A program made the translations under genes and the position numbers. The notes under the pieces were generated by a model. It worked only from the letters and a program-made list of their open reading frames with translations. It searched no databases and was not told the DNA's origin. Below, piece after piece: positions 2,162 through 39,701 of a stretch of DNA of 64,000 nt (position 1 is the stretch's first letter; the number at the start of each line of letters is the position of its first letter). The DNA is from Candidatus Babeliales bacterium. Its GTDB lineage: Bacteria; Babelota; Babeliae; Babelales; Vermiphilaceae. The DNA lies in assembly GCA_963743635.1 (NCBI GenBank), contig CAVUQO010000003.1, forward strand, positions 96,001 to 160,000. The letters are read 5' to 3'.

Positions 2162-3151
2162 TTAAAATAGATAAGTTATATAATCTTTTGTTTTTCCAAT
2201 TTTTTCTGCATATGGAAAAACACCCTCAATAACCATCCTCTTATCCGCTTGAGCCTTAGAACGAAGGTGAAAGTGATAAGTGTTTCGAGAATATCCCCTT
2301 ATATGATATTTCGTCATTGCAGCATCAACAGCCGTCTCTGTGTCTGTTGTATTATCCAGAAAGGTATAACCGCAGGATAATGCTTCATGATATTGTTTCT
2401 CAGCTGGAAGATCGGGCGAAATTCTAGAAAATAAGGCTTCTAGCGCTGGTTTCTTAGATGCCACATATAAAGACACGGCTTTCCTTGTAATGAGTAGTAT
2501 GCAATTATGTAACAGATTATTCAGCTGTTCCACAGTACGATTACTGTTTGCCTCATACTGCGAGTCCCGTTTAAGATCATTAAGTGTTTTTTGATAAGCT
2601 GTGATTATCGAATCCGATTGTTTCCCAGTGATCCGATTGGTGATGTTCAGTACATTTATTTCATAATCTTTTAGAGCAAGATCTAGCTTTGCAAAATTTT
2701 CTTGCGCTTTTGCAGCGTCGGTAGGTTCTATGCTATAAAAGTTCCATATCTCTAAAATATCTTTTACACATGAATCGATAATTTGTTCCACCTCAGGCCG
2801 TGTGGTCTCAGCAAAAGAAATAAGCTCTTGGAGCGCCTGTTCTCTTGTTATTACACTTTGTTGTTGCGAATCAGAGGTTGATGGCAAGCTTTCGGTTACT
2901 TGCTCTTTTTCATAAGTACGCTCTTCTATTGCAGAATTAAATTGCAGAGCTTTTTTATCTCCCTGTCGTGGAGCTTTTTTAAGAATTGATTTTTTAGTAG
3001 GAGTTGATGGAGAAGAGGTCGAGGGGGATTCGGTGTGTGAGGAGCTACTGCTTTCTGAATTACCCTTAATAGAAGGGCTTGCTTCTTCCATAGCGTGGAT
3101 CATGGGAGTTAAGTAGATGATGGTTGCAAGTATATAATAAATGTTGTGCAT
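2162..3151 (-). CDS. Secreted hypothetical protein (signal peptide ending IHA-MEE, Ser-rich linker)
   Basis: 329-aa ORF, AAGGAG RBS, hydrophobic N-terminus. Confidence 0.75.
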   Translation of the reverse strand: MHNIYYILATIIYLTPMIHAMEEASPSIKGNSESSSSSHTESPSTSSPSTPTKKSILKKAPRQGDKKALQFNSAIEERTYEKEQVTESLPSTSDSQQQSVITREQALQELISFAETTRPEVEQIIDSCVKDILEIWNFYSIEPTDAAKAQENFAKLDLALKDYEINVLNITNRITGKQSDSIITAYQKTLNDLKRDSQYEANSNRTVEQLNNLLHNCILLITRKAVSLYVASKKPALEALFSRISPDLPAEKQYHEALSCGYTFLDNTTDTETAVDAAMTKYHIRGYSRNTYHFHLRSKAQADKRMVIEGVFPYAEKIGKTKDYITYLF

Positions 3152-3237
3152 AGAGATTACTCCTTAAAAAAATACGTATTATATTCAGTATTTTACGTAT
3201 CATATTGGAATAGTAGTCGGCAATGAAAGAAAATTCA

Positions 3238-4628
3238 TTACGCTCCTTTATAAGTTTTGAGTGCAATTTTACGTTCTTTTTCATGGTCAACAATTGGCCT
3301 TGGGTAGTCTTTGTATTTAGGGCTGTATCTTTGAACCAAGTATGAATGATCTTAGGCTCAATTTTGGAGAGTTCAGGGATCCATCTTTTTATATAGATAC
3401 ACTCAGGGTCGAATTTCTTTTGCTGAGTCCATGGATTAAAAATACGAAAGTAGGGCTGTGCATCGCAGCCAGTAGAAGCGGCCCATTGCCAATTACCATT
3501 GTTAACCGCGGGATCGTAATCAACGAGTTGTTGCGCGAAATACTTCTCGCCCCATTGCCAGTTGATATGAAGATCTTTAGTTAAGAAAGATGCGACAATC
3601 ATGCGCGCCCGATTATGCATAAATCCTGTTTCATTGAGTTGCCGCATGCCCGCATCAACGATTGGAAAGCCGGTCTTACCTTCGCACCATTTTTGAAAGT
3701 TTGCTTTGCTCGTACTCCAATGGAGAGCGTTATATTTTTTATGATAAGCATGTCCGTAGACGTAGGGCGAGTGGAACGCAACGTGATAATAGAAATCGCG
3801 CCAGTAAAGTTGGCGTAAAAGTGGATGATTGACACCAAGATGTTCTTTGATGGATGCAGCCACTTGTCGAACTGAAACGCATCCGAATTTAAGATAAGCA
3901 GATAGATGAGTAGTTAATGAAAGAGCGGGAATATCTCGCTCTTTTTCATAATGTTTAAATTTCTCAAGAGAGCGTAAAATTTTTTGCCCATTATCAGTTC
4001 CGCCATGAACGAAAATAGCGGGATTTTCTTTTGGTACTATTTTTTTAAATAATACTTTTGATAATTCGGCGCCTTTGATCGATGTGGCGTAAAAATTATG
4101 AAGACGTAAAGAAAGAGGATTTTTTATAGGAAGATGTTTAAAGCAGTATTTATAAAAGGGAGTGAAGACTGAATACGGAGTTCCGCTGCCGGTTTTAACG
4201 TCATCTGGTTCATTGAGTAAAACATCTGAATGCTGCATGAAGGGGAGATTTGCCTGATCGCAGACTTTCTGAATTGCTGTATCGCGCATGATGCTAAATG
4301 GCGTATAGTCCCGATTGCAAAAAACTGCATCAATTTTTTCTTGTTTAATCAATTTTTTAACAATGTCGTCAGGCTTGCCATAAAAAACATAAAGTTGAGC
4401 TTTTTTTGCTGCTAATTGGCCTGAAAGATCTTTAAGGGATTCAACCATAAACTGGATTGCATTTGAGCTGCGATAATCATTGCTTTTTCCGATTTGACGT
4501 GTATCGAATATAAAACACGGAATCACCGTTTCGCTTTCAGCAAGCGCCGCATATAATCCGGTATTATCCGTTAAACGGAGATCGCGCCTGAATATAAAGA
4601 GAGCTTTTCGATATTGTTTTTGTGCCAT
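3238..4628 (-). CDS. phrB: Deoxyribodipyrimidine photolyase with an apparent 1-nt frameshift near the 3' end
   Basis: FRRDLRL.DN, LSAYLKFG, WRDFY, GKTGFPIVDAGMRQL, MHNR.RM, NNGNWQW motifs; typical tail DYPRPIVDH lies in another frame ending at TAA 3238-3240. Confidence 0.9.
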
Positions 4629-4717
4629 AAAAAACCTTTTCGAGCTAGATAGTTTGTACTATTTATAGCATAGAAAAGGTTTTTATATTTTGAAAACAAA
4701 ACGATGTATTCTGCTTA

Positions 4718-5176
4718 TTATGTTGTAAATGTACGGGCAGGAATTTCTTTGATGTAATGGATACAAAGTTCTTTAACGTCTTTCTCAAGAGGCCTTAAAA
4801 GATCGAATGGGTGGACGATTAATCGCTCCGAATGATATGGATTTTTGGCGTCCAATGCAACTGTTCTTATAATGATAGTATTATAATATTGCCTTACATT
4901 ACCAATATACTTATGGTTTTCTATGGGGTTAGATTTAATGAGCCCTATAATATCAGTTAAGTTATCTATCGCGTTCCCAATAATGGAATTTTTGATATTG
5001 TGCACTATCTTATCTTCGAGGCTTTTAAATGATGGTGATTCTCGAATTACATCGTTAATCAGTTCCGCCTGCGGGTGTTGCGGCTCATCCAGCATCATCT
5101 GTTGGTTATTCATGGCGCTTGCACGTCCACAAACTGCCAGCGCTACCAGCGCCATAACTTGAAAATATTTTTTCAT
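4718..5176 (-). CDS. Secreted hypothetical protein (MKKYFQVMAL...ASA-MNN)
   Basis: Start reassigned to 5176 (GGAG RBS, signal peptide shared with 5229..5483). Confidence 0.7.
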   Translation of the reverse strand: MKKYFQVMALVALAVCGRASAMNNQQMMLDEPQHPQAELINDVIRESPSFKSLEDKIVHNIKNSIIGNAIDNLTDIIGLIKSNPIENHKYIGNVRQYYNTIIIRTVALDAKNPYHSERLIVHPFDLLRPLEKDVKELCIHYIKEIPARTFTT

Positions 5177-5228
5177 AATGTTTGCTCCGTTGCGGGTTTT
5201 GCTAATCTTGCACCTATGACATTGACGT

Positions 5229-5483
5229 CTATGGGTGCGAGTGCTCTTGTTGCATAGACATCTGCGGATGCGGCTGCTGTTGCTGCATTGGCATCTGCGC
5301 ATGCGGCTGCTCTTGCTGTAGTTGCATTGCAATTATTGGTGGCATTGGTGCTTGTGGGTGTTGTTGTTCTTGTTGAGGCATTAGCGCTTGCGGGTGCGGC
5401 TGCTCTTGTCCGTTATACATGGCTCTTGCGCGTCCATAAACGGCCAGTGCTATGAGTGCCATAACTTTAAAGTATTTTTTCAT
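5229..5483 (-). CDS. Small secreted Gln/Pro/His-rich protein with QQQPHPQ repeats
   Basis: AAGGA RBS; signal peptide paralogous to the downstream gene. Confidence 0.7.
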   Translation of the reverse strand: MKKYFKVMALIALAVYGRARAMYNGQEQPHPQALMPQQEQQHPQAPMPPIIAMQLQQEQPHAQMPMQQQQPHPQMSMQQEHSHP

Positions 5484-5503
5484 ATTATTTTTTCCTTTAT
5501 TAG

Positions 5504-5531
5504 AAAAGGCATACTCAAATGGTATGCCTTT
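5504..5531 (-). terminator. Intrinsic terminator
   Basis: AAAAGGCATAC-loop-GTATGCCTTT hairpin after the stop at 5554; near-identical copy at 6276. Confidence 0.75.
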
Positions 5532-5553
5532 AAATTTTTGTACTAATCAGTAA

Positions 5554-5988
5554 TTAATTATTATTGTTATTGTTATTATTGTTGTTCGGTTGAACTGGTG
5601 CAGCGGGATCCTGAGGAGCAATCTGATAAATCAGACGTATCATTTCTATCTTCTCGCGTAATAGAATAAATGCTCGTCTGCTTGCTTTTCCATTGAATGA
5701 GGCGACGCGATCAAGCTCTGCGCCCAAATTCACGATTTCTTGAGCACGGCCTTGTAACGCAACGGTAAGCAATTCAGGGTTTCCAAAACGATTCTTTATG
5801 AACCTAGTCATATCGATACACGCAGAGTTGATCTGGCTCGTTCTAATTTTGTTATGTATATTGGCGATTTTTTGGTCGTCGGTAAGATTTGATGTTTCAT
5901 CATCCGATGAATCCAAATCATTATTCATTGCAAAAATATTTCCCGCTGAAGCAACGAGTAGGGCAGTTAGAAGATATAATTTTTTCAT
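5554..5988 (-). CDS. Secreted hypothetical protein with poly-Asn C-terminus
   Basis: Signal peptide MKKLYLLTALLVASAGNIFA-M; paralogous ends with 6328..6750. Confidence 0.75.
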   Translation of the reverse strand: MKKLYLLTALLVASAGNIFAMNNDLDSSDDETSNLTDDQKIANIHNKIRTSQINSACIDMTRFIKNRFGNPELLTVALQGRAQEIVNLGAELDRVASFNGKASRRAFILLREKIEMIRLIYQIAPQDPAAPVQPNNNNNNNNNN

Positions 5989-6003
5989 GAAAAGTCCGTA
6001 AAT

Positions 6004-6141
6004 ATGGTTTAGATACTAATATATTGTCATATATTAGTCTACTATAATGTTTTCTATTAGTCAAATGGGTAAGGATACAGGAGTGGTGTCAGCCAAAGGC
6101 AGGGATCAAACCTGTGAAATAGGTAGGATGCAGGTTCGATG
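6004..6141. repeat. 138-bp direct repeat, copy 1 (promoter region)
   Basis: Matches 6767..6904 with 2 mismatches by eye. Confidence 0.9.
6015..6064 (-). promoter_or_regulatory. Sigma70-like promoter overlapped by a palindrome
   Basis: Minus strand TTGACT-17bp-TAGACT; inverted repeat ACTAATATAT-TGTC-ATATATTAGT overlaps the -10 and start region. Confidence 0.6.
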
Positions 6142-6275
6142 AGGTTACCCAGGCTTGCGTCTACGCTCTGGTCATCTTGATCCTGAGCGCGCCGAAGGTA
6201 ACGAAGGACGTCGTATAGGTCGCTTTTAGTCGGTACAAAGTAGTCGGGCAGCGTCCGACGAGCGAAGTTGAAAAT

Positions 6276-6306
6276 AAAAAAGGCATACTCAATGGTATGC
6301 CTTTTT
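6276..6306 (-). terminator. Intrinsic terminator
   Basis: AAAAAAGGCATAC-loop-GTATGCCTTTTT. Confidence 0.75.
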
Positions 6307-6327
6307 AAATTCTGGAATGAGCTGTGA

Positions 6328-6750
6328 TTAGTTGTTGTTATTATTGTTCTGTTGTGCATTATTCATTATTGTTCTTACTCGTCCAATCTGAGTGTTTAAA
6401 TTTAAATTGAGAGCAGTTCTTGGTAGGTGTGGTTGAATTCTTGTATTGAGATTTTGAACAATTTGAAAAGCATGGGCTGACCCTTGCATTGTTGGATTCT
6501 GTTTAATGAGATCAAGCCAATCAAGCAGCGTCTCACGAACTTCTGTATAGTCAGGATTGGTCTGATTGAGTTGGTTAGCCTCTTGAAACTGATTTGCAGC
6601 TTGAATTGCATGGCCAGCATGAGTGGTTTGCTCAAGCGGATCAATAAGTATGGATTGCGGACGAGCGCTTTCCGTGTCGTCTGGCTCATTAGCAAAAATA
6701 TTTCCTGCTGAAGCAACGAGTAAGGCAGTTAAAAGATAAACTTTTTTCAT
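6328..6750 (-). CDS. Secreted hypothetical protein with poly-Asn C-terminus
   Basis: Signal peptide 19/20 identical to that of 5554..5988. Confidence 0.75.
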   Translation of the reverse strand: MKKVYLLTALLVASAGNIFANEPDDTESARPQSILIDPLEQTTHAGHAIQAANQFQEANQLNQTNPDYTEVRETLLDWLDLIKQNPTMQGSAHAFQIVQNLNTRIQPHLPRTALNLNLNTQIGRVRTIMNNAQQNNNNNN

Positions 6751-6766
6751 TTAAAATCCCTAAAAA

Positions 6767-6904
6767 ATGGTTTAGATACTAATATATTGTCATATATTAG
6801 TCTACTATAATGTTTTCTATTAGTCGAATGGGTAAGGATACAGGAGTGGTGTCAGCCAAAGACAGGGATCAAACCTGTGAAATAGGTAGGATGCAGGTTC
6901 GATG
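6767..6904. repeat. 138-bp direct repeat, copy 2
   Basis: Matches 6004..6141; the -35 hexamer here reads TCGACT. Confidence 0.9.
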
Positions 6905-6918
6905 GGGCTTTAAATAGT

Positions 6919-6944
6919 AAAGGCACATACGAAGATGTGCCTTT
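6919..6944 (-). terminator. Intrinsic terminator
   Basis: AAAGGCACAT-loop-ATGTGCCTTT after the stop at 6972. Confidence 0.7.
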
Positions 6945-6971
6945 GAGTATCATATTTTTAGAGAATATTGA

Positions 6972-7412
6972 TTATTGAGGGTTATTCATGATGTCTTCAT
7001 CAAGGTTGCTTGGATTCCCGCTTCTTACGGGGGAGATACTTGGGCACCGGATAATTTCTTTTAAGGTGCTTAAGCGCTCAGGGAGATCCCTGAATACAGG
7101 CGTACTCGATTGTCCTTTAAAGGACGCGAGAGAAAGAATCACTCCTGCAACACCTTCCACTACAGCCAAAGATTCAAGCGCGTCAGATGAATGTGGATTT
7201 TCTTCGATAGATGTTAATAGTTGCAGCACTTCACGTGTAGCAGGTCCAAGTTCCCTCTTTGTAATATGTTCTTGGATAGTTTGATGGAATTCAACAGGCG
7301 ACCGGCTTTGTTCGTTATCCGAATCCCAGCCTGAGCCTTCATGCGAATTCATCGTAAATATAATGATATTTGTTACAAGCAGCAACGCTGCTAAGAGTTG
7401 TTTTTTGTTCAT
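6972..7412 (-). CDS. Secreted hypothetical protein, distant relative of 5554..5988
   Basis: GGAGG RBS, signal peptide; ASFKG resembles ASFNG in 5554..5988. Confidence 0.7.
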   Translation of the reverse strand: MNKKQLLAALLLVTNIIIFTMNSHEGSGWDSDNEQSRSPVEFHQTIQEHITKRELGPATREVLQLLTSIEENPHSSDALESLAVVEGVAGVILSLASFKGQSSTPVFRDLPERLSTLKEIIRCPSISPVRSGNPSNLDEDIMNNPQ

Positions 7413-7581
7413 AGAAACCTCCGATTCTCTTCAAAAAAACTTGAAATACAGGGGTATTTCTTACTCTTAAGTATACCGCGTATTTTCTACTTGTCAAATA
7501 GGTTAAGTGAGGGGTATATCCAGCCAAAAGGAGTTTAAGCCTGCAAAAGTAGAAATAAATTCTCTTGGCTAGAGATTCGGA

Positions 7582-9042
7582 TTAGCCCAAATGCTTCTTG
7601 AGCAATTCCTGAATGACCTTTGGATTACCTTTGCCTTGGGTTTTGGCCATAGCCTGCCCCACAAAATAACCAAACAACTTCACGTTGCCAGCTTTATACT
7701 GAGCTACTTGGGTAGGATTAGCAGCAATGATGTCTTTAATAATTGCTTCGATTTCGTCGTGCGATCCCATCTGCTCAAGACCGAGTTCTTTAACGATATC
7801 GACTGGGTCTTTGCCAGTTTCAGCAACTATCTCAAATACTTGTTTTGCCGCATGATTATTAATCTTATCGGTGTCCATGAGCTGAATAATGGTAGCCAGT
7901 TTTTCAGGAGTTACCTTGCATTCAGCGAGTGAAATTTTGTGTTCTTTCAAGAGTCCCATTATATCGCGCAATACCCAGTTGATGCTATTTTTGCTCGGAT
8001 GTGCTTCATAGGTTTTTTCAAAGTAGTTTGCGAGCTCGAGGTCTTCGATTAAGATTTCCGCTTCATAAGGAGAAATATTTTTTTCTTTAATCAGACGATC
8101 AAATTTTTGATGTGGCAATTCTGGCATGGTCGCAGCAATGCGCGCAATCCAGGCATCATCAATGGAGATCAGTGGTAAATCAGGATCTTGGAAGATACGA
8201 TAGTCAGCTTCGCCTTCTTTGGTACGCATTAAGACTGTCTTTTTGTTTTTGCTATCCCAAAGGCGCGTTTCTTGATAAAGTTGCCCGCCATTTTCAATCG
8301 TAGTGATATGGCGTTCAATTTCATACTCAACGGCATCGCATATAAATTTGAAGGAGTTAATGTTTTTTAATTCACAGCGAACGCCCAATTCCTTCTGTCC
8401 CTTTTTGCGTACGGAAATGTTGGTGTCTCCACGGAATGCGCCTTGTTCCATATTGCCTGTACAGATACCGAGGTATTGTACCATGGCGTGCAATTGTTTA
8501 AGGTATGCGCGTACTTCATAGGTGCTATTAATGTCCGGTTCGCTGACCATTTCCAATAATGGAGTTCCCGCACGGTTGAAATCAACAAAACTTTCACCAC
8601 TCGCTGGATCGTGAATATTTTTCCCCGCATCTTCTTCCATATGAATGCGCTTGAGCCGAATGTTTTTGATTGTGCCATCTTCTAAGCGGATGGGAATAGA
8701 GCCATTCACGCAGATAGGTACATCGTTCTGGGTAATTTGATAGTTCTTAGGAAGATCAGGATAGAAATAATGTTTGCGATCAAAATAGGAAATTTTATTG
8801 ATGGTGCAGTTAGTCGCAAGGCCTGCAAGGATTGCATACTCCAGCACTTGCCTGTTGAGTACTGGTAGTGTTCCTGGGTAACCAGTGCATATATTGCAGA
8901 TATTGGTATTTGGTTCTTTTGGAATGGTATTGGCAGAAGAACAAAAGATTTTGCTTTTGGTAGTCAGCTGGACATGGATTTCCATGCCGATTGTCAATTC
9001 ATAATCAGGGTATTTATCTAGAACAGAGGGAATCTTAGACAT
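7582..9042 (-). CDS. gatB: Asp-tRNA(Asn)/Glu-tRNA(Gln) amidotransferase subunit B
   Basis: IGMEIHVQL, RKHYFYPDLPKNYQITQ, HMEEDAGK, DFNRAGTPL, ELKNINS. Confidence 0.97.
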   Translation of the reverse strand: MSKIPSVLDKYPDYELTIGMEIHVQLTTKSKIFCSSANTIPKEPNTNICNICTGYPGTLPVLNRQVLEYAILAGLATNCTINKISYFDRKHYFYPDLPKNYQITQNDVPICVNGSIPIRLEDGTIKNIRLKRIHMEEDAGKNIHDPASGESFVDFNRAGTPLLEMVSEPDINSTYEVRAYLKQLHAMVQYLGICTGNMEQGAFRGDTNISVRKKGQKELGVRCELKNINSFKFICDAVEYEIERHITTIENGGQLYQETRLWDSKNKKTVLMRTKEGEADYRIFQDPDLPLISIDDAWIARIAATMPELPHQKFDRLIKEKNISPYEAEILIEDLELANYFEKTYEAHPSKNSINWVLRDIMGLLKEHKISLAECKVTPEKLATIIQLMDTDKINNHAAKQVFEIVAETGKDPVDIVKELGLEQMGSHDEIEAIIKDIIAANPTQVAQYKAGNVKLFGYFVGQAMAKTQGKGNPKVIQELLKKHLG

Positions 9043-9121
9043 GTGTAACCTTAACTTAATTGTATTTCTAAAATTTGTTTAATGACTTTTATTCATCACT
9101 CAAGAGTCCGTAACGACTGCG

Positions 9122-9168
9122 TCCGGCGTAGTTATCCGGGCCTTCAGGCCCGGATGAACATAGATGGA
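9122..9168. repeat. Palindromic intergenic repeat, family A
   Basis: TCCGGCGTAG-(ATCCGGGCC TTCA GGCCCGGAT)-...AGATGGA; a related copy with reversed ends lies at about 17672. Confidence 0.65.
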
Positions 9169-9172
9169 AGAA

Positions 9173-10687: not shown

Positions 10688-10852
10688 CCCATCTAGATGT
10701 TGCCTTAGACATTTTTTCTGGTACGCTTAGGCATCATATGTAATATACTGCATATTGTAGGTAATGGGTAGAAGATTGCAAAAAAATATGCTAGATTCCC
10801 TTAAAATCTGAGAATTAAGTCAAAAATTTACGCAAAAAGAAAGGAAACTCCT

Positions 10853-11497: not shown

Positions 11498-11521
11498 GCT
11501 ATAATGAATATAAAAAACCTA

Positions 11522-17949: not shown

Positions 17950-18023
17950 GAGCGGGAGACGGGATTCGAACCCGCGACCTTTGCCTTGGCAAGGCAACGC
18001 TCTACCAACTGAGCTACTCCCGC
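17948..18023 (-). tRNA. tRNA-Gly(GCC)
   Basis: 76-nt cloverleaf GCGGGAG...CTCCCGCTCCA, anticodon loop TT-GCC-AA, T-loop TTCGAAT, encoded CCA. Confidence 0.98.
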
Positions 18024-22577: not shown

Positions 22578-23324
22578 TTATGGACGAGCTATAATTATGA
22601 TAGCAGGCTTGGATGATTCTTTTTCGTATTGCAGCTGTTTGTATATCAATAAGCCGTAATTTTTTTGAATTTTTTTGCGAAGGGATTCGACTTCTTGGTC
22701 TTTTGTCTCTTTTGTATCTATGGTGAATGCATTAACTTCAGCTTGAACCTTATGGAGCAGTGGAGTAACAATGCAGACCTCTTCTTTTTTCTGTCTTTCG
22801 ATGAATGCAAGCAGCGCATGACCGAGTCCAAGGCGTAATTCATGAGCGAGTGGCGCTAATTCTTCATCACCAGCCGTTTCTTTATCAAAATTATTAACTT
22901 CATCTCTCAGGCTCGATAAGTTTTCAATTTGCTGATTTTTGCTCAGTAGATTGCGAGCATCTCGTTCATCAGTCGGCTCATTGAGAGTCGCTATTAGTTT
23001 TTGTGCTATCACGCTTCCGACACCCTGCATTGCCCCTTGAAAAACGCCTTGCACCGCTCCTTCAGCAGCAGCCTTTGCAAGAATTCCGGCAGCATTAACA
23101 ACGGGATTGTCGCTTACTGTTTGAGCCGTGAAGGTTGGTTGCTGGTGCGTGTGATACGTATTTTGTCCCGTGCTGTGCATAAAAACGTGTGGCGTATGAA
23201 CATTGGTTTCACCAGAACTGATATTGGTGCCTTGCTGTATCGGCCTTGGTGTTTCACCTTCCATAGCAAACATTGTTGCATTGATTGAAATAAGCGCCAC
23301 GATAAGACATTGTTTTTTGAACAT
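22578..23324 (-). CDS. Secreted hypothetical protein (MFA-MEG)
   Basis: 248-aa ORF with signal peptide and a Gly/Ala-rich helix. Confidence 0.7.
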   Translation of the reverse strand: MFKKQCLIVALISINATMFAMEGETPRPIQQGTNISSGETNVHTPHVFMHSTGQNTYHTHQQPTFTAQTVSDNPVVNAAGILAKAAAEGAVQGVFQGAMQGVGSVIAQKLIATLNEPTDERDARNLLSKNQQIENLSSLRDEVNNFDKETAGDEELAPLAHELRLGLGHALLAFIERQKKEEVCIVTPLLHKVQAEVNAFTIDTKETKDQEVESLRKKIQKNYGLLIYKQLQYEKESSKPAIIIIARP

Positions 23325-29471: not shown

Positions 29472-29966
29472 TTATTTCAGGATTGTTTTTATCGTATTGT
29501 AGATTTCTATATGGTCGAGATAAAGATGTTCGTTTTTAACTATAACATATAGATGTTTTTCTATATCGCATTGATTATTGAGATTATTGAATTCTTTTTT
29601 ATATTGTTCGATGTGATTTTTCAAATTCACATCAGTTTTAATTTTTGCGAGTAAAGGCTTTGCTTGCTGAAGCCAAGCAGGCATCACCTTGTTAGCTTCT
29701 GTTATAGATTTTTCTGCTTGAATGGCCCAACCTTGCACTTTTCCAGCTGTTTTTGTGTCCATTGCCGATTTATCTTCGCTATTCCTGTGCATCACCTTGT
29801 CAGCTTCATCTACAGCTTTATCAGTATCACGAGCTGTATTCTTCCCGTGAGTATGAATTATGCCTTGTATGATGGCTGTAGTTATAAAAACTTTATCCAT
29901 GGCGCATGCTACACTGCCAAGCGTCAGGCCTAACGATGCAATTACTGATAACAATTTGTGATTCAT
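29472..29966 (-). CDS. Secreted hypothetical protein (ACA-MDK)
   Basis: AAGGAG RBS, signal peptide. Confidence 0.7.
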   Translation of the reverse strand: MNHKLLSVIASLGLTLGSVACAMDKVFITTAIIQGIIHTHGKNTARDTDKAVDEADKVMHRNSEDKSAMDTKTAGKVQGWAIQAEKSITEANKVMPAWLQQAKPLLAKIKTDVNLKNHIEQYKKEFNNLNNQCDIEKHLYVIVKNEHLYLDHIEIYNTIKTILK

Positions 29967-30735: not shown

Positions 30736-30762
30736 TTGTAATTTCATTATGAAAGGATTCAT

Positions 30763-32154: not shown

Positions 32155-32177
32155 CTTCTCGCCCTTTAAATGATTCG

Positions 32178-32211
32178 CACCCAGAAGGCTTTGTGGCATT
32201 CTGGGTGTTTT
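32178..32211 (+). terminator. Intrinsic terminator
   Basis: CACCCAGAA-loop-TTCTGGGTGTTTT. Confidence 0.7.
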
Positions 32212-32244
32212 AATTTTGGTGTTGTAAAGTAGTATTTTTTTAGA

Positions 32245-32279
32245 TTAAAAGGGCTCTCGTAATTGAGGGTTCTTTTTGT
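32245..32279 (+). repeat. Junction hairpin copy 1 (AAAAGGGCTCTC-GTAATT-GAG...)
   Basis: Recurs at 34442, 36879, 38225, each just upstream of an MKRI.. gene. Confidence 0.85.
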
Positions 32280-32331
32280 TATTATTTAAATGATTTTTTT
32301 GATATATCTGCAGTGTTAATTGAGGAAAAAT

Positions 32332-34419
32332 ATGAAGCGTATACTCGGTATGGTTGTTGCGGGGGTTTTAAGCGGCAGTATACATGCGATGGAGCAAGTG
32401 GCGTTGCTTACATCGGATAATCAAACGGTAATGCTTGATGTAAATAAGGTGCCATTATTTGGAACGATCCAAAGTGTAGTGGCCGACACATTTCCAAAAA
32501 CAACGGATGGTAAATTGGATTACTCGGCACAAAAAGATCCGATTCCACTACGTAACGTTTCGTATGATGTATTAACGCAGTTAGTTGATGATACCGATGG
32601 CATGCGTGATAAGGGAGCCTTGCAAATACCCACTTATTCGGATGAAACACTTTCTCATACGATGGGCTTGCTCAACGCGGCAAATTATTTGGGTACGCAT
32701 CCTTTGTTGTGCGCAAAATATGCAAAAAAAATAGCCGGATTATTGATATCGGATCGATCATTGGAGCAATTGCAACAGGCCCCAACGAAGCATCCTGCTT
32801 TCAAGCCATATGCATTGGCGTATTGCGCAAAACAGATGATTTATCCATATATGCCGCAAACATGGGTTGATCGATCTACGATTGAGCATGATGGGATTGC
32901 ATCGGTAGAATGTTCACCAGATAGCAGTGCAATACTGACTAAATCGCGATCGCGTGAAGGATCGACTTTCTTGCATGAAGCAAAAATGGCGAATGTGGCA
33001 ACGGGTAAAGTACAGTATGAGATTAGATATAAATGCGACAATAACTGCGTATATTTAGTTCCAGGTGCACTTGTAGAAGATCCAGGAAGTAGTTATGTGT
33101 GTGTGTGCGACGAGGATGAAATAAGTATAGAGAGTGCAGCATCGGGCGAGGTATATAAATTTGCTAGCAGCCACGCTCGTTTTTATCCGTTGATAATGTA
33201 CATGATTCAGCGACAGATGTTCTCGTTCAATAGCGTTATGGCAATAATGCCCCGCCGGGATGATACACTAGAAGTAGCGGACTTAGTGACGGACCGATTA
33301 TTGCATGAAATCAAGTGTGAGGGTCCGATTGCATCAGGAGTCCTTTCATCAGATGGCCGCGCGGCTGTTGTTAAATCAGAGGATGGAGTTGTAAAAATAG
33401 TAATGATTGAAACAGGCACAGTGTTTGACATTGAGCGCGAAAATACTGTTCTGGGGGCAACGGCTTCACCAGATAATAGCAAGGTTATGATTATGTTAGA
33501 TGATGATACCGCAGAGATAGTAGATATGGCAACGCATGAGGTATTGCATAGATTTAAAGGTGAATTTGGTGGACATGAAGGGTTTTTTTCGTCAGATAGT
33601 AGCATGGTGGCCAGTGTGTGGGATGGTGTTGGAAAAATACTAGATGCAGAAACAGGCCGAGTGTTGTACGAAACTGATAATAGCGGACGGCGCCGAGGAC
33701 TGGTGAAGTTTTCGCCGGATAGTAGTAAGGCGATGTTTTGTACCTACGAGTCTTCAAGTTCAATAATAGAGATAGTAAGCGTGGCAACGGGTACAGTGCT
33801 GGAGATTAAGCACGATACTCCCCTTGCAGGGGCGTTTTTTTCACCAGATAGCAATAGAGTGATGCTTTTTTTCGATAAGTCTAAGTCAGCAGAGATAATA
33901 AATGTGGCAAGGGGTGACGTAGGATTGCACGAGTTTGCGGCAAGGAATATACGCCTCTCGGGATGGTGGTTTGATAGTAAATCGGATACGCAATTTTTAC
34001 CCGACGGAAATAGGGCGGTTGTGATGTCGAAAAATACAGCAAAAATAATTGAGAAGGCCGCAAGTAACTTTGATCAGGCATTATTAATGCAATTAATGGA
34101 ATGGTGTCGCACAAATAAGCGTTCTGTGCCGCAATGTGGATGGGTGGAAGATGTAGTACATAGTTATACTGACCAGTTAACACTCAAGGCAGCAACTGAA
34201 CGAGCATTTTACATCGTCAATAGGTCCAAACAACCTTCGCAGACTATGTCAGCAATCTTGCAAGATGGTCGCCCCATAGATTCGGAAGATGACACGCCCG
34301 TGGAATCTACAGGGTCGCAGTCTGCGCATTTAATGGAAGATACATCAGATAGTCGAGTAAGACGTCTTGCCAGACAACTGAGAGCATCCTCACGAGATTC
34401 GAAATGTACGATTTCTTGA
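32332..34419 (+). CDS. Secreted Skp1/BTB-like + WD40-like beta-propeller protein with C-terminal CaaX (CTIS)
   Basis: Signal peptide; LLTSDNQ, PIPLRNVS, LLNAANYL blocks; repeated FSPD/SSDG blades; ends SKCTIS. Confidence 0.75.
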   Translation: MKRILGMVVAGVLSGSIHAMEQVALLTSDNQTVMLDVNKVPLFGTIQSVVADTFPKTTDGKLDYSAQKDPIPLRNVSYDVLTQLVDDTDGMRDKGALQIPTYSDETLSHTMGLLNAANYLGTHPLLCAKYAKKIAGLLISDRSLEQLQQAPTKHPAFKPYALAYCAKQMIYPYMPQTWVDRSTIEHDGIASVECSPDSSAILTKSRSREGSTFLHEAKMANVATGKVQYEIRYKCDNNCVYLVPGALVEDPGSSYVCVCDEDEISIESAASGEVYKFASSHARFYPLIMYMIQRQMFSFNSVMAIMPRRDDTLEVADLVTDRLLHEIKCEGPIASGVLSSDGRAAVVKSEDGVVKIVMIETGTVFDIERENTVLGATASPDNSKVMIMLDDDTAEIVDMATHEVLHRFKGEFGGHEGFFSSDSSMVASVWDGVGKILDAETGRVLYETDNSGRRRGLVKFSPDSSKAMFCTYESSSSIIEIVSVATGTVLEIKHDTPLAGAFFSPDSNRVMLFFDKSKSAEIINVARGDVGLHEFAARNIRLSGWWFDSKSDTQFLPDGNRAVVMSKNTAKIIEKAASNFDQALLMQLMEWCRTNKRSVPQCGWVEDVVHSYTDQLTLKAATERAFYIVNRSKQPSQTMSAILQDGRPIDSEDDTPVESTGSQSAHLMEDTSDSRVRRLARQLRASSRDSKCTIS

Positions 34420-34590
34420 ATATCCATAAATAAAAACATATTTAAAAGGGCTCTCGTAATTGAGAGCCCTTTTTTGTATAATGTGTGGCGTTAAATTTTT
34501 ATGCATAGCTACTGTAAGGAAATGCGTTATGAAGCGTATATTTGGTATGGCGGTTGCTGTAGCAATTTTGGGTGGAAGTTTGCATGCGAT
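34386..34590 (+). repeat. Junction repeat copy 2 (CaaX tail, terminator hairpin, -10, RBS, signal peptide)
   Basis: Similar to 38168..38375 and, from the hairpin onward, to 36879..37030. Confidence 0.85.
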
Positions 34591-34777
34591 GAAGCCAGAA
34601 AAGAAAAAAGAAGCATCTACAAATAATGCATCTACAGGCGAAGAGAAAAAAAAAGGGGGTGCATATTATTGGGCAGAGTACACAGCGCTTTTGGCGCAAA
34701 ATATAGAAACACAGGAAGATCGCGTAAAAGCGCTTGATAAGGTGATGGATAAAATGCCTAATGACTCTAAATGGTAA
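34529..34777 (+). CDS. Small secreted protein carrying the MKRIFG signal peptide
   Basis: Start reassigned by AAGGA RBS and homology to paralogs. Confidence 0.7.
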   Translation: MKRIFGMAVAVAILGGSLHAMKPEKKKEASTNNASTGEEKKKGGAYYWAEYTALLAQNIETQEDRVKALDKVMDKMPNDSKW

Positions 34778-34867
34778 TGAAATAATATGGTACGGAACTC
34801 GTTATTTGTGGATATTCTTTTAAGATAATTTATCCACTCAATACTACCCAATGAAAGGTATACAACT

Positions 34868-35251
34868 ATGCAAAAACTACTATTCATCTCTCTGATATGT
34901 TTGTCATCAGGATTGAATGCGATGTACCCCTGGAATTTATCCGAAAAGGAACGTGAAGCACGGGAGGCTGAAGGAGAGGAGCGGGCCCGAGCGCGGCATG
35001 CTCAAAGAGAGCAGGAGAGGCAAGAGCAAGAGCGCCAATGGCGAGAGGAAAGGCAGCTACAACGGCAAGAAGAAGAACGTCGACGACAACAAGAAGAACA
35101 CCAACGGCAAGAAGAAGAACGTCGACGACAGGAAGAAGAACGCCAACGGCAAGAAGAAGAACGGCTACGACGACAAGAAGAATTAGTGTATCGATTTGAA
35201 CGTGCAGTGCAATATGCCGAGGAAATGAATAAAAAAAATGAACAAAAATAA
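34868..35251 (+). CDS. Secreted charged-helix protein (RQEEERR repeats)
   Basis: Signal peptide LNA-MY; 21/42-bp tandem repeats at about 35060-35180. Confidence 0.7.
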   Translation: MQKLLFISLICLSSGLNAMYPWNLSEKEREAREAEGEERARARHAQREQERQEQERQWREERQLQRQEEERRRQQEEHQRQEEERRRQEEERQRQEEERLRRQEELVYRFERAVQYAEEMNKKNEQK

Positions 35252-35289
35252 GTAAAATCCCCATGTTCATATTAATAAAGGAAGATCTC

Positions 35290-35646
35290 ATGATTAAACG
35301 AATGTTATTAGGGTTGGTGTTGATGCCATGCTTAGCTTATGCGATGCAGCAGGAGCATCCAATGCAGTATATGTTCGGATTGACCAAAGAGGAACTGCTT
35401 ATTAAGAAGAAGGATACAGAAAATGAGGTGGAATATACGAGGAGCTTGCCCCCAAAGCTGTGCTGTGTCACGAGCCTAACTGTCTGGCTCACCAAAACAT
35501 CAAATGAATATATGTCAAGTTTAGAATCTGAGACTCCAGTGCGCTGTGGAAATTGTTGTTGGTATAAGTTCGGACAAAAAGATGAAAAGCGGGATGAGGA
35601 GCTGTTTAAAGAAATGGCCGCAGAATATGAAAAGCAACAAAAATAA
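35290..35646 (+). CDS. Secreted hypothetical protein (AYA-MQQ)
   Basis: AAGGAAG RBS, signal peptide. Confidence 0.7.
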   Translation: MIKRMLLGLVLMPCLAYAMQQEHPMQYMFGLTKEELLIKKKDTENEVEYTRSLPPKLCCVTSLTVWLTKTSNEYMSSLESETPVRCGNCCWYKFGQKDEKRDEELFKEMAAEYEKQQK

Positions 35647-35744
35647 ATTGAAGCGAAGGCAAATCATTGATAACCATTTTAAATATTGTTATTTTTTACC
35701 AGCGAATGTCCAAAATATAATCACGTAAAACCGTAAGGAACAAT

Positions 35745-36170
35745 ATGATCACAATACGAAACACCTTTTGCACAATAATGTTGGCGAGCACTGTATCGCT
35801 CTTTGCTATGGATGCGAACAGAGAAGCGCGTATGGAGGCGGACTCCAAAGCGAATAAGGAAATGACATACCTTGATTATGTGAAGTCTAATGCGGAAATG
35901 GAAGAGAAGATGGCATACAAAGAAGCGTATGTGCATGCGCAGGTAAGATCTGCATTTAAGCGAGCAACAAAGCCTGCAATTTTGACTAAAGAGCAATGTG
36001 AAGAGGCGTGTAAAGATGCAGAAAGATCAGCGCTAGGTGGTATACGAACTGCTGCTGATCTTTCTGCAAGCGAGTATGACGGACTGATTGCACGTGCTCT
36101 CTGGGATCAAGAGTTCAGGGCGAAAATAACCTATCCTGGATGGTTCAAGGCGAAATATTTCCACAACTAA
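35745..36170 (+). CDS. Secreted hypothetical protein (LFA-MDA)
   Basis: AAGGA RBS, signal peptide; terminator-like hairpin at 36204-36231. Confidence 0.7.
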   Translation: MITIRNTFCTIMLASTVSLFAMDANREARMEADSKANKEMTYLDYVKSNAEMEEKMAYKEAYVHAQVRSAFKRATKPAILTKEQCEEACKDAERSALGGIRTAADLSASEYDGLIARALWDQEFRAKITYPGWFKAKYFHN

Positions 36171-36415
36171 GACTCATCTGTTAGATCGAGTTCGCATTAA
36201 ATAAAAACCCCACTAAAAATAGTGGGGTAAAATTTAAACGTTAACAATTGGTGTTATTTTTTTAATGCCAAAAAGCGCTAACATATCCTTTGGATCAACA
36301 CCGGATGCAAAAACAAGCCTTGCGTCTTTGTAGTACGGTCCGGTGGCACCAGTTGCGCCAATATCGCCAGCAACACCCGTTATCTCAGTAGAGCCCGTAA
36401 GGCCTGTATTAGAAG

Positions 36416-36742
36416 TCACTCCCACCGATTGGATCGTGAGCCGCTTTCGATATTGTGGAAAGGGGGTAATCCGTTTTTCAAGTTTTGTTTAATTAGCGCC
36501 TCCGCATTCTCTATATATCGTTTCGTACTGTCGTCGTGCTTGGCCAATTCAGCTAGACGTTGTGCTCTCCACTCTAGGTATTTAGGGTCTTTAAAGTCCA
36601 TAGCAGGAGCACTCGTAGACTGGCCTGAGATATTTTGGGCGTTGGCAGTATTAGGCGTTTCATTAGGGTTCATCGCGTGTAAATAATTCGCTGATGCAGA
36701 GGTAGCGACAAACAAAAGGAAATTCAACGACTTTGTTTTCAT
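36416..36742 (-). CDS. Secreted hypothetical protein (LHA-MNP)
   Basis: AAGGA RBS, signal peptide. Confidence 0.65.
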   Translation of the reverse strand: MKTKSLNFLLFVATSASANYLHAMNPNETPNTANAQNISGQSTSAPAMDFKDPKYLEWRAQRLAELAKHDDSTKRYIENAEALIKQNLKNGLPPFHNIESGSRSNRWE

Positions 36743-36878
36743 AAGACATATCCTTTAGAAAAAGAACAACATTAAAATTTTGATCTAATGTACATTCATA
36801 ATGAGAAAAAACAAATTATGTGAACCAAATTTAGATCTCCAGTTTTTTCATATAAATAAACATTAAAAATAATGTCTT

Positions 36879-37030
36879 TAAAAAGGGCTCTCGTAATTGA
36901 GGGCCCTTTTTTGTATAGTGGGTGACGTTAAAATTTTATGCATAGTTACTGTAAGGAAGCGGACTATGAAACGGATATTCGGTATGGCGGTTGGTTTGGG
37001 AATTTTGGGTGGAAATTTGCATGCGATGGA
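36879..37030 (+). repeat. Junction repeat copy 3
   Basis: Hairpin, TATAGT, RBS and signal-peptide codons conserved. Confidence 0.85.
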
Positions 37031-38201
37031 ACAAGGGCAATCGAGTCAACAGCTTGATTATTCGTTTGTAAAAGCAGGCAATTATGAACATAAGAATGTT
37101 GATTTTGCAACTATTTCACCTGATGGCAACACCATCGCGAGCGTCTCGTGTTTGGCTAGAACGGTAAAGATTAAGTCATTGAGAACAGACGAACCTCCCT
37201 GTTGTTTTTCATTGCCCCATGAATACGAGGTAAAACTAGCAGAATTTTCACCCGATTCCAGCAAAATTGCGGTTGTGACTAAATATGATGCTCCTGGATG
37301 TTTTTTCATACTTGATGTAATTAAGAAGCAGAAAGGAGATAACGCTATAATATCTCCAAAGGCTTTCATGTTTCCCTGCGAATCAATAACGTTTGTACCC
37401 GGCAAAGAAAAGGTGATTGTGGCTGATCAAAAATCGGTAAAAGTTGTTAATATTTCTACGGGGCAAGCCGAGCATGAAATTGCGCTCGACCACTTCAAGT
37501 ATATTCGAGCATATTATTTACAAGGAGCTACTACGTTGCTTGCCTTATTGAATAATGGCATAGCAAAAAGAGTGAATCTTTCTACAAATGAAGATTTATC
37601 GGATATTACTTATCAAAGTGGTTCGATTGGAGGGAATGCTGGCTGGGGTGCAAGAATGGGCAACACGTCGGCTTTATCGGGCAATAAGATGGTGATCATC
37701 TCAGATGATAATAGCGTTGATGCGAAAACGGGTGATAATAGCGTGGGGGTCTATGATGCGACAACGGGTGAAAAAAAAATTGTAGTACCTACAGACCTTG
37801 TTAAGCGGGCGAGTACGGTAGCTTTATCTCCAGATGGTAAGGTTTTAGGATTTGCGCATCGTACTAGATACGTTTCTATAGTAGATGCAGAGACGGCTGA
37901 ATTGAAGCATACGGTACCTAATAAATCGAGCGGCTCTATCGTCTCTATAACGTTTTCACAAGATAATCGTTTTATGTTGGTTAGGCCTTGTTGGAACGGT
38001 GGGCCAGTCACTCTCTACGATGTTCAAACAGGTGAGAGTAAATTTGAATTTGAAGGCAGAATGCATACTTCGGGAGTATTTTCGACCGCAGGTGATTATG
38101 TGGTAGTCTCATCGTGTGATCTGAGCAAGGTCATGATTGTTCGGCGAATAATTGCCCAGTCTGCGCAATCCTCACAAGATTCGAAATGTATAATTTCTTG
38201 A
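36966..38201 (+). CDS. Secreted WD40-like beta-propeller protein with C-terminal CaaX (CIIS)
   Basis: SPDG/FSPD blades, YD..TG turns, ends SKCIIS. Confidence 0.8.
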   Translation: MKRIFGMAVGLGILGGNLHAMEQGQSSQQLDYSFVKAGNYEHKNVDFATISPDGNTIASVSCLARTVKIKSLRTDEPPCCFSLPHEYEVKLAEFSPDSSKIAVVTKYDAPGCFFILDVIKKQKGDNAIISPKAFMFPCESITFVPGKEKVIVADQKSVKVVNISTGQAEHEIALDHFKYIRAYYLQGATTLLALLNNGIAKRVNLSTNEDLSDITYQSGSIGGNAGWGARMGNTSALSGNKMVIISDDNSVDAKTGDNSVGVYDATTGEKKIVVPTDLVKRASTVALSPDGKVLGFAHRTRYVSIVDAETAELKHTVPNKSSGSIVSITFSQDNRFMLVRPCWNGGPVTLYDVQTGESKFEFEGRMHTSGVFSTAGDYVVVSSCDLSKVMIVRRIIAQSAQSSQDSKCIIS

Positions 38202-38375
38202 ACATCCATAAATAACAAGGCTATTTAAAAGGGCTCTCGTAATTGAGGGCCCTTTTTTGTATAGTGGGTGACGTTAAAATTTTATACATAGGTATCGTGA
38301 AGGAAATGGACTATGAAACGGATATTTGTTATAGCGGTTGTGGCGGGATTTTTGGGCGGCAGTGTGCATGCAATG
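38168..38375 (+). repeat. Junction repeat copy 4
   Basis: CaaX-coding tail, hairpin and leader as in copy 2. Confidence 0.85.
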
Positions 38376-39701
38376 CAGCAGAAACAATCGAGTCAGCAGC
38401 TTGAATACTCTTTCGTAAAGGCAGGCAATTATGAACATAAGAATGTTGATTTTGCAACTATTTCACCTGATGGCAAGGCGTTATTAACAACATCGCATGG
38501 AGGGTGGAAAGCCCCATACCGCGGAACTATAATGCTCAAACATATTGATAGTCGGGAAGAACCCGTTTGCTTTGAGCACAGGAGCAGTGAAATGTTGGCG
38601 GCCTTTTCATCCGATAGTAAACGGGCTGCAGTTTCGAGTCGGTATCACGCCAATAATGGAGCATTAATTATACTTGATGTGGTTAAGGGTAAGATAGAGA
38701 AGGAAATCCCTACTAATGATAAGGGTTGGCATTTTTTGTCGTTTGCATCAGGTGACACAAAGGTGATTACAGTTGGATATAGCTCGGTGCATATCTTTAA
38801 TAGCGATACGGGAGAAATAGAGCGTAAGATCGACGAGTATAGCGATAACATTGGAATATGTTTTTTTAAAGAGAATGTCTTGATGGCATTATTGCATAAT
38901 GGCGTGATAAAAAGTGTAGATCTCGGCACTCTTAAAGACTTGCCAGATATTACCTGTTTAGATGCACCCAAGGCTTGGGATTCTTGGGTAGGATCTGCAT
39001 CTGCGTTGGGTAATCGGGTGGTTATTGTTGGAGAAGCCGATGATGTGAACGTGTACGATGCGCAAACAGGCCATAAAATAGTGAAAATGCCTATGGGGAG
39101 AGTATCTGACTTTCATAATCGGTATCATGTGAGGCGGACTGGGTTATCATCAAGTGGCGATACTCTTGTACTTGGATTGCAGGGGAACCGAGGAGAGAAG
39201 GCAATGGTAGCTATAGCAGATATAAAGGGATGTTCAGGAATACATACTTTCAATCTTGAAATTTGTTTTAAAGAAGATGGTCTCCTAAGCCCCATAAATG
39301 CACCAGCAATAAAATTGTCGCCGGATGACCGTTCAATGTTAGTTGAGCCTGGGGATTGGAATTGTACAGGGCCCGCAGTTATCTATGATGTGCAAACGGG
39401 TGAAAAGAAATTTGAATTTGAAGGCGGCGAGAAGAATTCTACATATGGATTATTTTCTCCTAATGGTGAGTATGTGGTGGCTGCATCGGATGGAATAGTG
39501 CAGATTGCTCGGCGGATAATTGCGCAGTCCTTACAGGCGTCGGGACCATCAGAGCCTGCGCGTGCTTCACAAGCAGATGAAGATGATAAACCCGTGCAGT
39601 CTGGAGGTTCGCAATCTTTGCAGTTAGTGGAAGTGACATGGGGGAGTCGGGTCAGAAATCTTACCAGACGGCTGATAGCATCTTTACAATTTTCGAAATG
39701 A
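38313..39701 (+). CDS. Secreted WD40-like beta-propeller protein; CaaX interrupted by TGA
   Basis: Paralog of 36966..38201; 3' end reads TCG AAA TGA ATG GTT TCT TGA. Confidence 0.8.
   Translation: MKRIFVIAVVAGFLGGSVHAMQQKQSSQQLEYSFVKAGNYEHKNVDFATISPDGKALLTTSHGGWKAPYRGTIMLKHIDSREEPVCFEHRSSEMLAAFSSDSKRAAVSSRYHANNGALIILDVVKGKIEKEIPTNDKGWHFLSFASGDTKVITVGYSSVHIFNSDTGEIERKIDEYSDNIGICFFKENVLMALLHNGVIKSVDLGTLKDLPDITCLDAPKAWDSWVGSASALGNRVVIVGEADDVNVYDAQTGHKIVKMPMGRVSDFHNRYHVRRTGLSSSGDTLVLGLQGNRGEKAMVAIADIKGCSGIHTFNLEICFKEDGLLSPINAPAIKLSPDDRSMLVEPGDWNCTGPAVIYDVQTGEKKFEFEGGEKNSTYGLFSPNGEYVVAASDGIVQIARRIIAQSLQASGPSEPARASQADEDDKPVQSGGSQSLQLVEVTWGSRVRNLTRRLIASLQFSK

Follow-up and report, generated by a model that had tools for sequence, protein, structure and literature searches.

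Dependentiae (Babeliales) are widespread obligate parasites of protists. In a 64,000-nucleotide window of one of their genomes, and throughout that genome, we found that a subset of proteins with signal peptides shares a junction consensus at the end of the leader, namely [M/L/I/V/A]-x-[A, less often G/S], followed by Met-[Asp/Glu/Asn/Gln]. The pattern is real, far beyond chance and much larger than the window. The motif marks fast-evolving, eukaryote-like or orphan secreted proteins, and it is essentially absent from envelope housekeeping proteins. Positions are numbered from the junction, Met being +1 and the residue before it −1.

Enrichment and anatomy of the junction

The window (the whole 64,000-nucleotide stretch) is part of a 1.45-Mb, 42% GC Dependentiae/Babeliales genome in three contigs (G000). 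Open reading frames (ORFs) were called crudely, as the longest frames of at least 50 aa with overlaps settled by length, yielding 1756 ORFs genome-wide. An ORF counted as leader-like (787 did) if its N-terminus, read from the first ATG or one soon after, had a net positive beginning and a core of 8 uncharged residues averaging at least 1.7 in hydropathy. These criteria are permissive and admit membrane proteins; the gene and signal-peptide calls are home-made heuristics. A blind cleavage guess scored positions −3 and −1 only and ignored +1. The motif set comprised 162 leader-like ORFs with A-M at the junction past the hydrophobic core, so that a positively charged n-region and an uncharged hydrophobic core (about 8 or more residues) are selection criteria of this set.

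Among the leader-like ORFs, A-M occurred 11, 28, 44, 30, 25 and 18 times at offsets 5, 6, 7, 8, 9 and 10 past the core (156 in total); no other offset between −3 and +24 had more than 6. In mature parts, Met follows Ala at a frequency of 2.0%. The blind guess found Met at +1 at 109 of 496 sites, 10.2 times the mature-part frequency, followed by Gly (44), Ser (40) and Ala (37); Gln occupied 16 sites (0.8 times background). When the tripeptide [A/G/S]-X-[D/E/N/Q] was counted 3–11 residues past the core, X was Met 145 times, a 16.3-fold enrichment. The same test gave 1.0-fold for Leu and 0.9-fold for Ile, so the effect is specific to Met and not general to hydrophobic residues. As a small control, the same scripts were run on E. 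coli K-12 (150 kb), where they picked up well-known proteins of the periplasm and outer membrane; the 36 leader-like ORFs contained one A-M, and blind +1 was Met at 0 of 20 sites.

Inspection of the 162 motif proteins showed Met (21%), Leu (20%), Ile, Val and Ala (15% each) at −3, together 86%; this share of Met is unusual for a signal peptidase I signal. Position −2 was His, Leu, Gln, Gly or Phe. Ala at −1 results from the selection: Gly, Ser and Thr variants exist that the first search missed, and at least 15 further proteins with [AGST]-M-[DENQ] lie beyond the 162. At +2, Gln (34), Glu (34), Asp (31) and Asn (17) accounted for 116/162 (72%), with about 19.5% expected from composition, and 48% of the motif proteins had D/E/N/Q at +3 as well. 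For leaders without the motif, the guessed +1 was Gly, Ser or Ala, and D/E/N/Q reached only 18–27% at +1 and +2.

In overall design these leaders resemble classical Sec/signal peptidase I signals: they have a positive start, a hydrophobic core, a c-region of about 5–10 residues, Ala at −1 and a large polar or aromatic residue at −2, and the genome has signal peptidase I genes. They differ in the +1 Met at ten times background, which the E. coli control lacks, and in the frequent Met at −3. In lipoprotein sorting (the +2 rule with Lol avoidance, and the lipoprotein export signal of Bacteroidetes), the first mature residues decide between periplasmic retention and further export. There, too, the sorting residues lie at the very start of the mature protein, but lipoproteins carry lipidated Cys ends generated by signal peptidase II, whereas +1 is Met in 162/162 Dependentiae motif proteins, with no lipobox.

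Codon use of the −1 Ala matches genome-wide Ala codon use, and no base conservation was seen around the junction of the 162 genes outside the junction codons. This implies selection at the peptide level, and a nucleotide motif or recombination signal at the junction was rejected on the same two observations.

The leaders, with their n, h and c regions, are translated as true N-termini. Shine–Dalgarno (SD)-like sites, defined as an SD-like 4-mer 4–20 nt upstream of a start, were present before 69% of leader starts in the 162 genes and before only 2% of their +1 Met codons. The reference values were 57% for 323 long ATG gene starts and 9% for 322 random internal Met codons. The scarcity of such sites before the +1 Met removes the idea of an internal start.

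In the window, 15 ORFs had been proposed to carry Met right after the likely cleavage site, and all were confirmed at their starts, with leaders of 18–23 residues, a hydrophobic core and x-x-A before the Met (Thr instead of Ala in the ORF starting at 7412). The start of the leader contains K/R in 14 of the 15; the exception, ORF 3151, lies outside the 162-protein set and was not taken in by the Pfam scan below. D/E/N/Q follows the Met in 12, the others being 5483 (MY), 34529 (MK) and 34868 (MY). Their description as mostly unrelated was borne out, since only three (32332, 36966 and 38313) have related mature parts. SD-like sites stand before the leader start in 14/15 and before the Met codon in 1/15. 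Of the 5 window ORFs compared with public gene calls, 4 have the leader start there and none has the Met start. The ORFs, with one motif-less neighbour, are as follows.

2162–3151, − strand: ORF of 329 aa with a 20-residue leader ...MIHA/ME, Met codon at 3091 (translation; SD-like site before the leader start)
4718–5176, − strand: ORF of 152 aa with a 21-residue leader ...RASA/MN (translation; no Pfam match)
5229–5483, − strand: ORF of 84 aa, leader ...RARA/MY, resembling the leader of 5176 (translation)
5554–5988, − strand: ORF of 144 aa, leader ...NIFA/MN, near-identical to that of the neighbour 6328–6750 (translation, leader comparison)
6328–6750, − strand: neighbouring ORF, leader ...NIFA/NEPDD without Met, a natural contrast to 5554–5988 (leader comparison)
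6972–7412, − strand: ORF of 146 aa, leader ...IIFT/MN, Thr at −1 (translation)
22578–23324, − strand: ORF of 248 aa, leader ...TMFA/ME (translation; no Pfam match)
29472–29966, − strand: ORF of 164 aa, leader ...VACA/MD (translation; no Pfam match)
32332–34419, + strand: ORF of 695 aa, beta-propeller (WD40-like), leader ...SIHA/ME (Pfam; exact leader-containing sequence in public gene calls)
34529–34777, + strand: ORF of 82 aa, leader ...SLHA/MK, of the type in 32332, 36966 and 38313 (translation)
34868–35251, + strand: ORF of 127 aa, leader ...GLNA/MY (translation; neither start present in public gene calls)
35290–35646, + strand: ORF of 118 aa, leader ...LAYA/MQ (translation)
35745–36170, + strand: ORF of 141 aa, leader ...SLFA/MD; a paralogue with the same junction lies elsewhere in the genome (translation, comparison)
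36416–36742, − strand: ORF of 108 aa, leader ...YLHA/MN (translation)
36966–38201, + strand: ORF of 411 aa, beta-propeller (WD40-like), leader ...NLHA/ME (Pfam, translation)
38313–39701, + strand: ORF of 462 aa, paralogue of 36966 (39% identity), leader ...SVHA/MQ (translation, comparison)

As the original prediction had stated, the motif is missing from the exported proteins of the 41.8–64 kb block, where none of 10 leader-like ORFs has it; these ten are two lactonase-type propellers, one GT2 glycosyltransferase and ORFs without a Pfam match. The motif occurs genome-wide and recurs across Dependentiae, and hence is not local to the 2–40 kb segment. The sole Rfam match above the gathering score in the window was a tRNA gene at 17951–18023 (− strand).

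Proteins and families that carry the motif

Pfam domains were compared between 154 of the 162 motif proteins (three straddling tile borders and five WD40 paralogues were left out) and all 245 motif-less leader proteins that are 100 aa or longer and have no additional hydrophobic segment. All classes were taken at E ≤ 1e-6 and counted by eye. Matches were obtained for 37/154 motif proteins (24%) and 91/245 non-motif proteins (37%), leaving 76% and 63%, respectively, without a match. The motif had been proposed to mark a class of exported orphans. It does mark a subset of exported proteins, but orphan status does not define this subset; the difference lies in the kind of annotated domain. The motif class contained 24 eukaryote-type proteins (15 WD40-type propellers, 5 RING or RING+IBR, 2 C2H2 and 2 DnaJ proteins), and WD40, RING, IBR, C2H2 and DnaJ domains were found in 0 of the 245 non-motif proteins. 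The other motif proteins with matches were Sel1 (with DUF5092; 3), GNAT (4) and one each of a double-AAA ATPase, a methyltransferase, a thioredoxin, an M15/VanY peptidase and an fn3/lactonase giant. An M48 peptidase with the motif fell just past the cut (1.7e-6). As for a type IV pilin-like N-methylation leader, only 1 of the 154 matched N_methyl, a pilin that is a false positive of the motif search.

Envelope housekeeping proteins showed the opposite distribution, with 21 of the 245 in the non-motif class and 1–2 with the motif (the M15/VanY-like peptidase), so the motif is not equally frequent among periplasmic housekeeping proteins. Those without it were Skp/OmpH, an amidase, GH3, a PBP-type beta-lactamase fold, a Legionella-type OMP, MreC, SpoIID, a DegP-like protease, two binding proteins, a SecD-like domain, a pilin, GspC, a secretin, OmpA, BamD, TamB, an OMP barrel, a transglycosylase, an S41 protease and ZnuA. 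Many exported hydrolases and metabolic-type enzymes also belong to the non-motif class, and about three-quarters of all leader-bearing proteins have no Met at +1.

At L046:2474-7571 (contig C3:222471-227571), two adjacent genes encode proteins of 619 and 987 aa that have identical signal peptides and carry dense arrays of eukaryote-type C2H2 fingers (Pfam E = 3e-25 and 8e-56). Signal peptides were also seen on proteins of usually cytosolic or nuclear type: an RBR-type (RING-IBR-IBR) ubiquitin ligase, a double-AAA ATPase, SET, PP2C, PRPP synthetase and an M17 aminopeptidase. Their loci are L018:13006-14298, L064:6963-9359, L071:9297-9881, L075:11616-12485, L025:391-1428 and L008:16399-17955. 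In the accessible text on Chromulinavorax, 44% of the coding sequences carry signal peptides, ORFans are enriched in that set, and 78% of the ankyrin proteins have a signal peptide (Deeg 2019, PMC6561590).

BLAST of the mature parts sorted the 162 motif proteins into 116 families, about 100 of them singletons; the largest, the WD40 propellers, has 25 members. Leaderless fragments 60–99% identical to parts of this family (ORFs g0113, g1054 and g1323 of G000) are probably truncated copies or pseudogenes of an expanding family. The 5′ regions of the 162 genes (150 nt upstream plus the leader) form 102 clusters, and one leader type, with the consensus MK-x-LKLMALVALVCYGQS-x-LA, is carried by 9 mature families. 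The window neighbours starting at 5988 and 6750 agree in 19 of 20 leader residues and share nothing beyond about residue 37, with Met and Asn at +1, respectively. Of 53 in-register cross-family DNA matches starting upstream of the junction, 33 end 0–11 nt past the first base of the Met codon. The pattern fits an exchange of 5′ modules, or gene conversion halting where homology ends; because the ATG is shared by construction, which sharpens the pile-up of break points, we read it only as a break at the leader/mature boundary.

The SVM signal of phytoplasmas is likewise a conserved signal peptide on sequence-variable effectors. The likeness consists in Sec-dependent effectors of a reduced intracellular bacterium and a leader common to unrelated mature parts; the difference is that about 100 different Dependentiae leaders converge on one junction. 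Pfam SVM_signal matched 0 of the 154 motif proteins.

Motif genes lie in clusters: the next motif gene is at a median distance of 1.7 kb, versus 3.2 kb for random gene sets (minimum 2.0 kb in 200 draws). In their products, Glu, Gln, Lys and Arg are over-represented and Gly, Val, Tyr and Phe under-represented.

Relatives and export machinery

The rule is widespread in the order and was lost or never gained in some genera. We analyzed 400-kb samples of each of three relatives.

G005 (same family): 188 leader-like ORFs; A-M 15; [G/S]-M 29; blind +1 Met 14/87
G001 (another family): 186 leader-like ORFs; A-M 16; [G/S]-M 13; blind +1 Met 11/114
G027 (same family, other genus): 218 leader-like ORFs; A-M 7; [G/S]-M 10; blind +1 Met outside the top six residues

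A broader sample consisted of 80 lepB-anchored loci from Babeliales/Dependentiae/TM6 metagenome-assembled genomes, around the 80 best signal peptidase relatives in public genomes. Met was enriched about 9–10-fold in G005, G001 and these loci. In the latter, blind +1 was Met at 35/344 sites (10.2%, second only to Ser), the tripeptide test gave 8.8-fold, and 53 of the 80 loci had at least one Met case. G025 and G027 represent two genera of the same GTDB family without the Met rule; the predicted +1 of their WD40 leaders was Ala, Ser or Ile. In G021, 3–4 of 6 leader-bearing WD40-type proteins have the Met.

Two tandem signal peptidase I (S26) genes encoding 332 and 312 aa were found in G000 (C3:523052-525004; L076:436-2388), directly downstream of an M23 peptidase gene; among 40 relatives the copy number is 1–2. 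A dedicated signal peptidase paralogue was rejected as the basis of the rule. G000 has two tandem copies, G001 has one and follows the rule, G021 has the insertion type only and follows it as well, and G027 and G025 do not follow it, so neither copy number nor type correlates with the rule. The genome also encodes two secretins and a GspC-like protein, none of whose leaders has the motif. In the accessible text of Yeoh 2016 (PMC4776705), every TM6 genome compared is reported to have a type II system with gspD in two copies.

Eleven leader-bearing GNAT acetyltransferases were noted, for example at L053:1538-6429 (five in a row), L048:9340-10509 and L002:7526-8101. For 10 of the 11 the best NCBIfam match was rimI, a protein N-terminal acetyltransferase, all below the cut-off. 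As a modifying enzyme for the Met terminus they were set aside as a loose lead only, since their numbers do not follow the rule (10 in G027, 1 in G025, 7 in G005, 5 in G021 and 3 in G001).

Readings of the Met terminus

We suggest that the motif is a lineage-specific variant of the ordinary Sec/signal peptidase I signal peptide in Dependentiae. Signal peptidase I would cut before the Met, and the exported protein would begin with Met-[D/E/N/Q]. This new N-terminus may be a tag, read after cleavage, on proteins that leave the periplasm to act on the host. It could serve as a sorting or secretion-competence mark for a second step across the outer membrane (the genome has a type II system with two secretins), or as an N-terminus that is stable and host-like once in the eukaryotic cytosol; our results favour neither readout over the other. 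Housekeeping exports manage without the Met, which indicates that neither Sec export nor cleavage in itself requires the Met-[D/E/N/Q] end and that this end is more likely read afterwards. From the sequence evidence, we hold the tag reading tentatively, at somewhat less than an even chance.

Several results weigh against it. The first group concerns the site and the class. Cleavage before the Met is predicted, but A/M was the best blind −3/−1 site in only 99 of the 149 motif proteins given a site; in the rest the junction is a plausible site, with a better score 2–8 residues upstream or 2 downstream. The class split is unclean, as the motif occurs on a thioredoxin, an M15 peptidase and M48 peptidases, and leader proteins without it include ankyrin (5), Sel1/TPR (5), GNAT (7, two of them G/M variants), LRR, SET, PP2C and AAA proteins. 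Neither the composition nor the last residues of the motif proteins revealed a shared C-terminal secretion signal.

The second group comes from the relatives. The main weakness is that sister genera export homologous proteins without the tag. The tripeptide test in G027 showed enrichment of Ala and not of Met, and 0/3 leader-bearing WD40 proteins in G027 and 0/2 in G025 have the Met, so the tag is dispensable for exporting such proteins. In the accessible text of Yeoh 2016 (PMC4776705), the type II system is described as shared by TM6 genomes. Across the relatives, we found no gene that tracks the rule when signal peptidase type and the numbers of exported GNATs were followed. Conservation of the Met in orthologues is not demonstrable, because hardly any orthologues of the motif proteins can be recognized in the relatives sampled. 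When the 162 mature parts were searched by BLAST in the three 400-kb samples, only 5 usable matches came up, all WD40, and the thioredoxin-domain motif protein had domain-level matches only in 60 genomes. An all-versus-all comparison of 2056 leader-like ORFs showed homologues that are also x/M in 29% versus 8%, but in the two best families, conserved ones near lepB with a seemingly retained Met, the position is an ordinary one with M/L/I/V, and we conclude nothing from the raw difference.

In Plasmodium, the PEXEL motif RxLxE/Q/D follows a signal sequence, and a dedicated aspartic protease cuts it to leave E/Q/D as the second residue. By analogy only, and as far as the available text on PEXEL goes (PMC2408878), the Dependentiae motif resembles this two-part signal, in which an ordinary signal sequence plus a short motif marks a host-bound subset. 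PEXEL belongs to a eukaryotic parasite, however, and the Dependentiae motif sits at the signal-peptidase site itself; no R-x-L was seen in the position tables of the motif proteins from −10 to +8. It is possible but doubtful that Met-[D/E/N/Q] targets bacterial proteins to the host, as a prokaryotic equivalent of PEXEL, and/or gives them a host-like N-terminus of the NatB class. If it were true, a PEXEL-like tag would separate proteins that leave the periplasm and act on the host from those that stay in the envelope. It would also explain how WD40, RING, zinc-finger and further eukaryote-like proteins are delivered by Sec and a second step alone in a phylum without type III/IV injection systems.

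NatB acetylates, mainly on nascent chains, proteins that start with Met followed by Asp, Glu, Asn or Gln, while Ala and Ser are stabilizing N-terminal residues. As a special case of the tag, the exported proteins might mimic host N-termini: their Met-D/E/N/Q ends would keep the Met and belong to the NatB class, and the effectors would evade N-degron recognition or be acetylated. Provided that cleavage occurs before the Met, the +2 preference (116/162) equals the NatB substrate set. WD40, RING/IBR, C2H2 and DnaJ, the domains exclusive to the motif class, act in the eukaryotic cytosol or nucleus, and the WD40 homologues of motif-less genera start with A or S after the predicted cut, which are stabilizing as well. 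On the other side, NatB, which prefers nascent chains, would have to act on a translocated protein, and effector-like proteins without Met have predicted +1 residues (at uncertain sites) that include the destabilizing I, L, N, E and D. We regard host mimicry as unlikely.

The motif could also be a historical by-product of modular gene birth, in which 5′ modules (promoter, ribosome-binding site and signal peptide) were exchanged or fused before complete frames and the Met is a functionless retained initiator. The 5′ regions common to genes with unrelated mature parts, the leader type on 9 families, the 5988/6750 pair and the 33/53 matches ending at the Met codon would all suit this history. It needs an exact, linker-free fusion in about 100 independent 5′ regions, however, and leaders are shared also where +1 is not Met. 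Gene conversion that halts at the end of homology would produce the same break just as readily, and the shared ATG inflates the pile-up within about 10 nt. D/E/N/Q at +2 (72%) compares with 25% as the second residue of 258 non-exported ATG-start ORFs, a bias implying selection for more than a start codon passed down. Taken together, this origin appears distinctly unlikely.

A general P1′ Met preference of the lineage's signal peptidase I, with no class meaning, seems very unlikely to us. It would accord with the lineage specificity of the rule, its variation between genera and the two tandem paralogues, but about three-quarters of the leader proteins, including nearly all recognizable envelope housekeeping proteins, lack the Met, and peptidase copy number and type do not follow the rule in G001 and G021. 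The model for such a preference is the Q-rule of Bacteroidetes, where, in the accessible text, Gln stands at P1′ of signal peptidase I substrates and is cyclized to pyroglutamate (PMC5837995). Both are phylum-level first-residue rules on an ordinary Sec/signal peptidase I signal and give a chemically defined N-terminus, as far as the accessible descriptions go (PMC5837995, PMC10653852). They differ in the residue, Met here and not Gln. As described there, the Q-rule covers most signal peptidase I substrates, whereas the Dependentiae rule covers about one-fifth to one-quarter (22% of blind sites) and skips envelope housekeeping. The Dependentiae motif also includes the following D/E/N/Q, unlike the Q-rule. 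To our knowledge, no modifying enzyme is known for the Met rule, which sets it further apart from the Q-rule.

Dual initiation, with the Met as a second start codon giving a leaderless cytoplasmic isoform, was rejected on the SD statistics and is extremely unlikely: the +1 Met is always encoded by ATG and hence a potential start, but SD-like sites are rarer there than at random internal Met codons, and leader starts have them as often as long genes or more; no nucleotide-level signal was seen around the junction. An artefact of chance, composition, paralogy or ORF calling, for which the home-made gene and leader calls and the 25 WD40 proteins among the 162 might speak, is effectively refuted by the controls, given a position-specific 10–16-fold enrichment without Leu or Ile in 116 families, the negative E. 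coli result and the agreement of public calls on the leader start.

Full-text literature searches, with most subscription journals and supplements outside their scope, found no description of the Met rule. In the accessible text, the word "motif" has 0 occurrences in Deeg 2019 (PMC6561590), as does "signal peptide" in Yeoh 2016 (PMC4776705); signal-peptide lists in the supplements of both might show the pattern uncommented. The accessible text of Bochtler 2018 (PMC5837995) has 0 occurrences of "methionine", "TM6" and "Dependentiae".

A rule that separates host-directed from envelope proteins would be a cheap predictor of effector sets for hundreds of uncultured genomes, and it would point to a new sorting or N-terminal recognition step. 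It would also be the second phylum-specific P1′ residue of signal peptidase I, after the Q-rule of Bacteroidetes. The genera without the rule are natural controls for experiments and for phylogenetic profiling, and their standing side by side with genera that have it makes comparative and swap experiments straightforward.

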